A DNA stretch of 64,000 bases from a plasmid. The notes beneath the pieces are model-generated. The model was given only the letters and a program-made list of their open reading frames with translations. It ran no database searches and was not told the origin of the DNA. The stretch is from assembly GCF_056712565.1 (NCBI RefSeq), contig NZ_JBWXXM010000003.1; one strand, written 5' to 3'. The stretch's first letter is position 1. Every line of letters starts with the position of its first letter. This document shows positions 45,937 to 46,569 of the stretch, piece after piece. The position numbers and the translations under genes were made by a program.

Positions 45937-46569
45937 ATGGCAGTTCGTGGCATTAACAAGGTCATTCTCGTAGGACGCCTGGGAAAAGATCCGGAAGTCC
46001 GTTACATCCCCAACGGGGGCGCAGTGGCAAACCTGCAGGTGGCCACATCAGAAAGCTGGCGTGACAAACAGACGGGGGAGATGCGGGAGCAGACAGAATG
46101 GCATCGTGTGGTGCTGTTCGGCAAGCTCGCGGAAGTGGCAGGTGAATATCTGCGCAAGGGCGCGCAGGTCTACATCGAAGGTCAGCTTCGCACCCGTAGC
46201 TGGGAGGATAACGGTATCACCCGTTACGTCACCGAAATTCTTGTTAAGACCACGGGCACCATGCAGATGCTGGGACGTGTCGCAGGTGCTCAGACTCAGC
46301 CGGAAGAGGGGCAACAGTTCAGCGGTCAGTCTCAGCCGGAACCACAGGCGGAGGCCGGTACGAAAAAAGGAGGCGCAAAAACGAAAGGCCGTGGACGTAA
46401 GGCCACGCAGCCGGAGTCGCAGCCGCAACCGCCGGAGAGTGACGATTACGGGTTTTCAGATGATACCCGTTCTGAACGACTGACTGTGACAACCGCTCCG
46501 TCCTGTGCGGGGCATCACCGGAGAGATGAGGATGAGCGAATATTTCAGAATACTTCAGGGGCTGCCTGA
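45937..46569 (+). CDS. ssb: plasmid single-stranded DNA-binding protein SSB; C-terminal tip altered by apparent 1-nt frameshift
   Basis: [72 protein letters not shown]... OB fold; expected ...DDIPF* replaced by ...SDDTRSERL... extension. Confidence 0.8.

Follow-up and report, generated by a model that had tools for sequence, protein, structure and literature searches.

Genes of the leading region and identity of the plasmid

[quoted passage not shown] On the plus strand, the order of genes is ssb, a DUF905 gene (yfjA-like), a ParB-like gene (yfjB-like), psiB, and psiA, all directed towards oriT. The origin would lie just downstream of this operon, because traM is found at 53775-54158; the distance from ssb to traM and oriT is about 7 kb, and TraC is encoded further on, at 61037. 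The features of the operon are as follows.

45572-45891, minus strand (the transferred strand): a long imperfect hairpin, Frpo2-like, 320 nt, upstream of ssb (DNA fold)
45937-46569, plus strand: the frameshifted plasmid ssb ORF, 210 aa plus stop (ORF and translation; NCBIfam NF010292)
46532-46765, plus strand: the DUF905 (yfjA-like) gene (Pfam PF06006, E=1.8e-32; PGAP coordinates in the related record L002)
46829-48787, plus strand: yfjB, ParB-like, intact (Pfam ParB_N/HTH_ParB)
48839-49276, plus strand: psiB, intact (Pfam PsiB, E=1.8e-63)
49273-49992, plus strand: psiA, intact (Pfam PsiA, E=2.5e-38)

Folded as DNA, the minus strand of the hairpin region reaches -97.3 kcal/mol (z = -7.55), and none of 100 shuffled sequences (0/100) was equally stable. 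This is consistent with a putative single-strand promoter of the Frpo2/ssp type, and the Frpo2 single-strand promoter itself sits upstream of ssbF (PMC9849209). In promoters of this type, the long hairpin of the transferred strand restores the -35 and -10 boxes.

Over 24 kb of the window (30000-54000), identity is 100% to plasmid CP088425.1, from a human blood isolate, and 99.9% to the plasmid of the E. coli type strain ATCC 11775, whose gene content includes cvaABC (with cvaB and cvaC named) and cvi for colicin V, iroBCDEN, and iss. The window itself encodes SopA, a TonB-dependent siderophore receptor, a metal ABC-transporter binding protein, TraM, and an F-type TraC. The ColV genes of these near-identical relatives, taken together with the window's own gene content, identify it as part of a ColV-type IncFIB conjugative virulence plasmid. 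Plasmids of the same lineage carry many other frameshifted or truncated genes.

A single missing base displaces the acidic tip of SSB

The ssb reading frame runs from an ATG at 45937 to a TGA at 46567-46569 and encodes 210 residues ending in ...SDDTRSERL...SGAA. A preliminary description of this DNA had given this tail, which agrees exactly with the translation of 45937-46569, and had proposed that a 1-nt frameshift replaces the conserved DDIPF tip. Comparison with the ssb of close relatives bears the proposal out. The comparison set consisted of three complete E. coli plasmids with an intact gene, pUTME-12-3 (L004), p13C1065T-2 (L005), and pAPEC3701 (L007), whose SSB has 179 aa in each case; in the nucleotide alignment, all three carry the additional T and read GATGATATCCCGTTCTGA, which encodes ...DDIPF followed by a stop, where the window has GATGATACCCGTTCTGA at 46459-46475. 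Since this is a plain one-base difference from the family and not a statistical pattern, chance is not an issue. The parts of the altered gene, all on the plus strand, are the following.

45952-46260, plus strand: the OB-fold ssDNA-binding and tetramerisation domain, aa 6-108, intact (Pfam PF00436, E=1.7e-37, 128 bits)
46273-46464, plus strand: the disordered linker, which keeps its original frame as far as ...DDYGFSDD (linker alignment with intact relatives, collinear)
Between 46465 and 46466, plus strand: the 1-nt deletion site, one T missing (alignment with L004, L005, and L007)
46465-46569, plus strand: the out-of-frame tail, 34 residues (TRSERL…SGAA) plus the TGA at 46567-46569 (translation)
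46467-46475, plus strand: the vestige of the original ending, CCG TTC TGA (Pro-Phe-stop), now in the -1 frame (sequence and alignment)

The missing T lies in the context GATGATA[T]CCCG, outside any homopolymer. The change of frame falls within the last five codons ahead of the natural ssb stop, and the terminal Ile-Pro-Phe is lost, leaving the window SSB devoid of the C-terminal acidic tip, D-(D/E)-I-P-F, that is a feature of the family. The 34 residues now found at the end of the protein are a translation of the former ssb-yfjA spacer and of the first 38 nt of yfjA in another frame; they have zero net charge and end without an acidic-hydrophobic terminus. The extended ssb frame now covers the yfjA ribosome-binding site and, from the yfjA start at 46532, those same 38 nt.

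Two alternative readings concern this short stretch of DNA. The first is that the tip is still made on some molecules, by a programmed -1 ribosomal frameshift after the Thr codon ACC, which would lead into CCG TTC TGA and give a near-canonical ending, ...DDTPF and a stop. The presence of Pro-Phe-stop in the -1 frame directly after the deletion site speaks for it. However, there is no slippery heptamer of the form X XXY YYZ in GGGTTTTCAGATGATACCCG, at or upstream of the site, and re-pairing in the -1 frame fails for both tRNAs, whether on GAU ACC C or GGG UUU UCA. Nor is a stable downstream structure predicted, the fold of 46455-46600 being no better than that of shuffled sequences (z = +1.21). 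Moreover, one frame suffices to encode the tip in the intact relatives, which makes the Pro-Phe-stop no more than the original ending, now displaced. With neither a slippery site nor a stimulatory structure, we rejected programmed frameshifting, to which we assign next to no probability.

The second reading holds that the main effect of the deletion is on the translation of the downstream yfjA (DUF905), and possibly of later genes, as ribosomes would now read through the spacer, its hairpin, and the ribosome-binding site. The position of the new ssb stop (46567-46569) inside yfjA, 35 nt beyond its start, is what this reading builds on. Against it, the RNA fold just described (46455-46600) is no more stable than shuffles and thus offers no sign that the ssb-yfjA spacer holds a regulatory structure open to disruption; we rejected such a structure as a candidate. 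Such an effect could also accompany the main explanation given below rather than replace it. As the principal consequence of the deletion, we consider it very unlikely.

A small feature of the spacer is recorded here in its own right. A GC-rich hairpin lies at 46492-46513, after the old ssb stop and ahead of the ribosome-binding site of yfjA, and reads GCCCCG-TCCTGTG-CGGGGC in relatives; in the window lineage, a C to T change at 46497 turns one of its G-C pairs into G-U.

The missing base is an inherited allele of the lineage

Over the 901 nt at 45900-46800, all 40 of the 40 best PLSDB plasmids listed are 100% identical to the window. They come from E. coli and Salmonella and from many laboratories, hosts, and years, and include pECOS88 (from strain S88), the ATCC 11775 plasmid, and many poultry-associated Salmonella plasmids; in PLSDB, 114 records are at least 99% identical over the same 901 nt. 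We also used a 61-nt probe centred on the junction, for which a score of at least 99% demands an exact match across the deletion. The exact 61-mer was present in 124 complete-genome E. coli records, and the exact 62-mer with the T restored in 53, with near-identical intact versions in about 750 more. The same allele occurs, with 1 nt difference in 1101, on an IncFIA/FIB plasmid of Escherichia albertii that encodes microcin J25. At the protein level, the exact 210-aa sequence is found on at least 1000 contigs, and the names of its sources include Salmonella Kentucky and 'MULTISPECIES ... Gammaproteobacteria'.

These observations bear on whether the missing T could be a sequencing or assembly error in the record, which the preliminary description had offered as the alternative to a functionally altered protein, whether through a homopolymer or another indel. 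Single-base indels are indeed the commonest assembly error, and another frameshifted ssb, present on one contig only (L006, described below), is probably an example. For the window allele, however, the case is different. The missing T does not belong to a homopolymer run, so that miscalling of such a run does not offer itself as an explanation. An error in the record is refuted by the replication of the same sequence across independent assemblies: the identical allele is present in more than 100 independent complete plasmid assemblies from three species, with the junction in 124 records of complete E. coli genomes as well as in plasmids of Salmonella and E. albertii, and with its protein on the at least 1000 contigs noted above. 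We regard an error as practically excluded, and the missing T is a real inherited allele, common to the ColV-type plasmid lineage. The preliminary description had also named, as evidence against its reading, related plasmids that share the extended tail with function retained. Of these two points, the sharing is what the relatives show; once the error reading is set aside, the description of a real SSB that lacks its partner-binding tip stands.

The truncated state of the gene is already on record in RefSeq annotation, and we are not describing a new gene or system. In two RefSeq carriers of the allele, one identical over the 901 nt and the other with a single SNP at 46337, PGAP gives ssb the pseudogene flag 'p', with the comment 'incomplete; partial in the middle of a contig; missing C-terminus', and the pseudogene feature ends exactly at the second GAT, at window position 46464. 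PGAP applies this flag to genes that are truncated or frameshifted relative to the reference proteins of their family, as this ssb allele is. Our literature searches found no published description of the tip-less ssb allele.

Sequence around ssb in the lineage and its relatives

Upstream of ssb, comparison with records L004 to L007 reveals a second private 1-nt deletion of the window lineage, in which one G is gone from a G-run at 45903 (GATGATGGGGCTG), 34 nt upstream of the ssb start. This loss joins a small upstream ORF in frame with ssb to give a continuous 287-aa ORF at 45706-46569. In relatives, the small ORF has 68 aa, with the annotation 'hypothetical protein' in both L005 and L007. Located within the Frpo2-like hairpin, it is unlikely to be a genuine gene. 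In L004 (1308-1513) and L006 (784-989), at positions equivalent to about 45707-45912 of the window, PGAP labels this ORF 'single-stranded DNA-binding protein, frameshifted'. The label looks like an annotation artefact, and its source could be reference proteins with an N-terminal extension that resembles the fused 287-aa ORF of the window. A further ORF of 139 aa lies antisense upstream of ssb (45217-45636, minus strand) and overlaps the hairpin region. It is called 'hypothetical protein' by PGAP in relatives, had no match in a Pfam search, and is likely spurious.

Downstream of ssb, two relatives deserve mention for the genes of the operon. In pECOS88 (L001, 7203-9505), the IS21-family element ISEc12 interrupts the ParB-like gene, whereas the window copy at 46829-48787 is intact; the leading region of the lineage therefore tolerates further disruptions. 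In the PLSDB gene table of the E. albertii plasmid p1 (L008), psiA is unlisted between psiB, which ends at 33897, and hok at 34921. It may be a pseudogene there, or may merely be absent from an incomplete table.

Conservation of the tip and recombination among plasmid SSBs

A large protein collection was searched with the 210-aa product, and the 120 best cluster representatives were examined. The ending IPF is present in 85 of the 120, and all clusters of about 200 to 2476 members have it, except the 256-member cluster of the window allele itself. An out-of-frame tail in the same frame as that of the window is found in 24 representatives, and many of these owe it to other frameshifts, for which A- or G-runs in the linker are a frequent site. 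When ten tip-less or frameshifted variants were looked up by exact sequence, all ten were on one contig each or had none recorded. These ten are thus best seen as sporadic mutations or errors, and we rejected recurrent tip loss as a signal of selection. Judging from these protein sequences, the tip is normally preserved in plasmid SSBs, and the window allele is the one tip-less form that has become common.

A separate case is the ssb (1015-1541) of the E. coli O169:H41 plasmid NZ_CP024225.1 (L006), which has a different 1-nt deletion, one G from the GGG of TACGGGTTTT, and a tail in the same frame as that of the window. It is found on one contig, against 291 contigs for its intact counterpart; the probable cause is an error of assembly or a mutation private to this plasmid.

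The variants seen within the window lineage comprise P134L, on several dozen contigs, V21D as a singleton, and two singleton in-frame deletions in the linker. No established second disruptive mutation was found in the lineage. This would fit a recent expansion, and equally well continued selection on a working tip-less protein. With nearly every copy identical over the 901 nt, neutral drift and selection cannot be separated, and a dN/dS or decay analysis is infeasible.

The ...SDDTRSERL junction is also found joined to other upstream ssb haplotypes in several proteins, each from a single contig. For two such records (L010 and L011), the DNA downstream of the deletion has the private markers of the window lineage, T at 46497 and G at 46561. 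They are therefore recombinants, with a crossover between 46438/46443 and 46465, and we rejected an independent loss of the T in either. A Salmonella Saintpaul contig, DBBAJS010000084.1 (L009; gene at 546-1127), lacks the same T but is L007-like in haplotype to the left and right of it, where 46443 and 46476 are the closest positions that discriminate. Either this T was lost here independently, or a conversion tract of less than about 33 nt brought the loss in; being one sample, the contig serves as a lead only.

A probable tolerated loss of the tip from an otherwise intact SSB

Up to the frameshift, the protein is that of an ordinary plasmid SSB. It scores 374 bits against the NCBIfam plasmid-type SSB subfamily NF010292 (cut-off 265), with a match covering profile positions 1-174 of 175, and 177 bits against TIGR00621 (cut-off 54); residues 1-113 align with solved cores of E. 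coli-type SSB, for example 1eyg and 1eqq. Relative to the closest intact relative, L005, residues 1-114 are identical, and A115V, at the start of the linker, is the sole lineage-specific amino-acid change before the frameshift. The linker (residues about 113-176) is collinear in L004, L005, and L007, as are residues 1-176 overall. We infer from these alignments that the 210-aa product would bind ssDNA and form tetramers; it likely coats ssDNA yet, by prediction, cannot dock the partner proteins of the host. Alternatively, the 210-aa protein may be unstable and effectively null. A partly functional product is likelier here than for a typical pseudogene, because about 98% of the coding length, with the entire folded domain, can still be translated, and the expression signal in front of it is apparently intact. 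A tblastn search of the window for a second, compensating ssb copy found none, and the annotation of a sister plasmid lists none over its first 50 kb.

The SSB of a plasmid has an accessory role: a single-strand promoter drives its brief production on entry into a host that has its own essential SSB. [quoted passage not shown] For all the SSB-interacting proteins examined, the main contact is the nine-residue acidic tip, whose last Pro-Phe occupies a hydrophobic pocket of RecO and of ExoI (PMC7145534). Deletion of ssbF from the F plasmid left the frequency of conjugation unchanged and delayed the first plasmid duplications (PMC9849209), and deletion of ssb from pED208 increased the mating-induced SOS response of recipients, with transfer unaffected (PMC8406263).

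The explanation that we favor, and in which we have good though not full confidence, is that a vertically inherited deletion of a single T has produced a core-intact, predicted tip-less SSB, and that this is a tolerated loss carried by a successful lineage. The deletion after 46465 shifts the frame such that the OB core and the linker are kept and Ile-Pro-Phe is swapped for 34 unrelated residues; the OB fold is intact in the sequence, and so is the operon in which the gene sits. If made, the product would still coat ssDNA, would be unable to recruit the partners of the tip, and would probably mix into tetramers with the host SSB. The defect is presumed to be near-neutral and would have hitch-hiked with an epidemiologically successful plasmid lineage. 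Tolerance of such a defect, or of an effectively null protein, is to be expected, because the plasmid SSB is accessory and transiently made, and the host SSB does the essential work.

An adaptive explanation would instead see the tip-less SSB as having been selected as a non-recruiting coat of the incoming strand, a better shield and a damper of the SOS response. The product, made transiently on entry, would coat the strand or mix into host SSB tetramers, and the recruitment to incoming DNA of RecO/RecR (for RecA loading and SOS), ExoI, RecJ, and RecQ would be reduced. Such neofunctionalisation would agree with an untouched OB fold and linker, with a gene that is still placed behind a Frpo2-like hairpin in an intact ssb-yfjA-yfjB-psiB-psiA operon, and with an allele that is very widespread, in three species. 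The 3' end of the allele has also recombined into other ssb backgrounds (L010 and L011), and the same T is missing in a different haplotype (L009), so that the deletion may have arisen twice; however, these three are themselves single-contig observations. The survey of plasmid SSBs points the other way, as the large clusters other than that of the allele itself all keep IPF and the other tip-less variants checked are singletons, which argues that tip loss is not generally favored. Furthermore, the new tail is spacer read out of frame and has no sign of shaping, and a tip-less SSB would be expected to hinder PriA- and chi-dependent synthesis of the complementary strand. On balance, we think adaptive neofunctionalisation unlikely. 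Were it true, the allele would encode a natural 'stealth' SSB that has converged in function on the tip-less SsbB of bacteria with natural competence.

Significance and comparison with known systems

The allele amounts to a natural experiment, in which virulence plasmids of the ColV type, from poultry Salmonella and from extra-intestinal and avian pathogenic E. coli, have spread widely with a tip-less SSB. The spread of the ColV lineage supports the laboratory findings that the plasmid SSB is dispensable for transfer, and suggests that its contribution, whatever its nature, is not strictly tip-dependent. The natural allele and its +T repair would form a ready pair with which to study the role of the plasmid SSB tip in establishment, and the missing T itself provides a clean one-base lineage marker for the plasmid backbone and its recombinants.

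The closest known system is the SSB of the F plasmid (SsbF, or Ssf) and, more broadly, the leading-region ssb of F-like and IncI1 plasmids (NF010292 / PRK13732), with which the window shares the same gene in the same place and order, together with a Frpo2-like hairpin. It departs from the SsbF family in lacking the terminal Ile-Pro-Phe, in ending with 34 out-of-frame residues, and in having a frame that overlaps the start of yfjA.

The tip mutants of the E. coli chromosomal SSB, which include laboratory C-terminal deletions of about 8 residues and ssb-113 (P176S), affect an essential host gene and are lethal or conditionally lethal. The window allele resembles them in that the OB core and ssDNA binding are predicted to be kept and docking by the tip to be lost (for the role of the tip, see PMC7145534). 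Unlike them, it is a natural allele of a dispensable plasmid paralogue, which is present beside a wild-type host SSB.

A looser resemblance is to SsbB, and PDB entry 3vdy, of the SsbB type, is among the sequence matches of the window SSB. The competence-related SsbB of Gram-positive bacteria is a tip-less paralogue that binds incoming ssDNA in horizontal transfer, and comes from a long-established, dedicated gene whose C-terminus is short and evolved. Both are OB-fold SSB paralogues without the canonical acidic tip; in the window, however, the tip was lost through a recent frameshift, the sequence that replaced it is unselected, and there is no evidence of specialisation.

Finally, the allele can be set beside the ordinary frameshift pseudogenes of plasmids, in that it bears the PGAP pseudogene label and occurs among many other broken genes. 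It differs from them in what is left of the gene, since the window ssb keeps about 98% of its original coding length and the whole of its folded domain.
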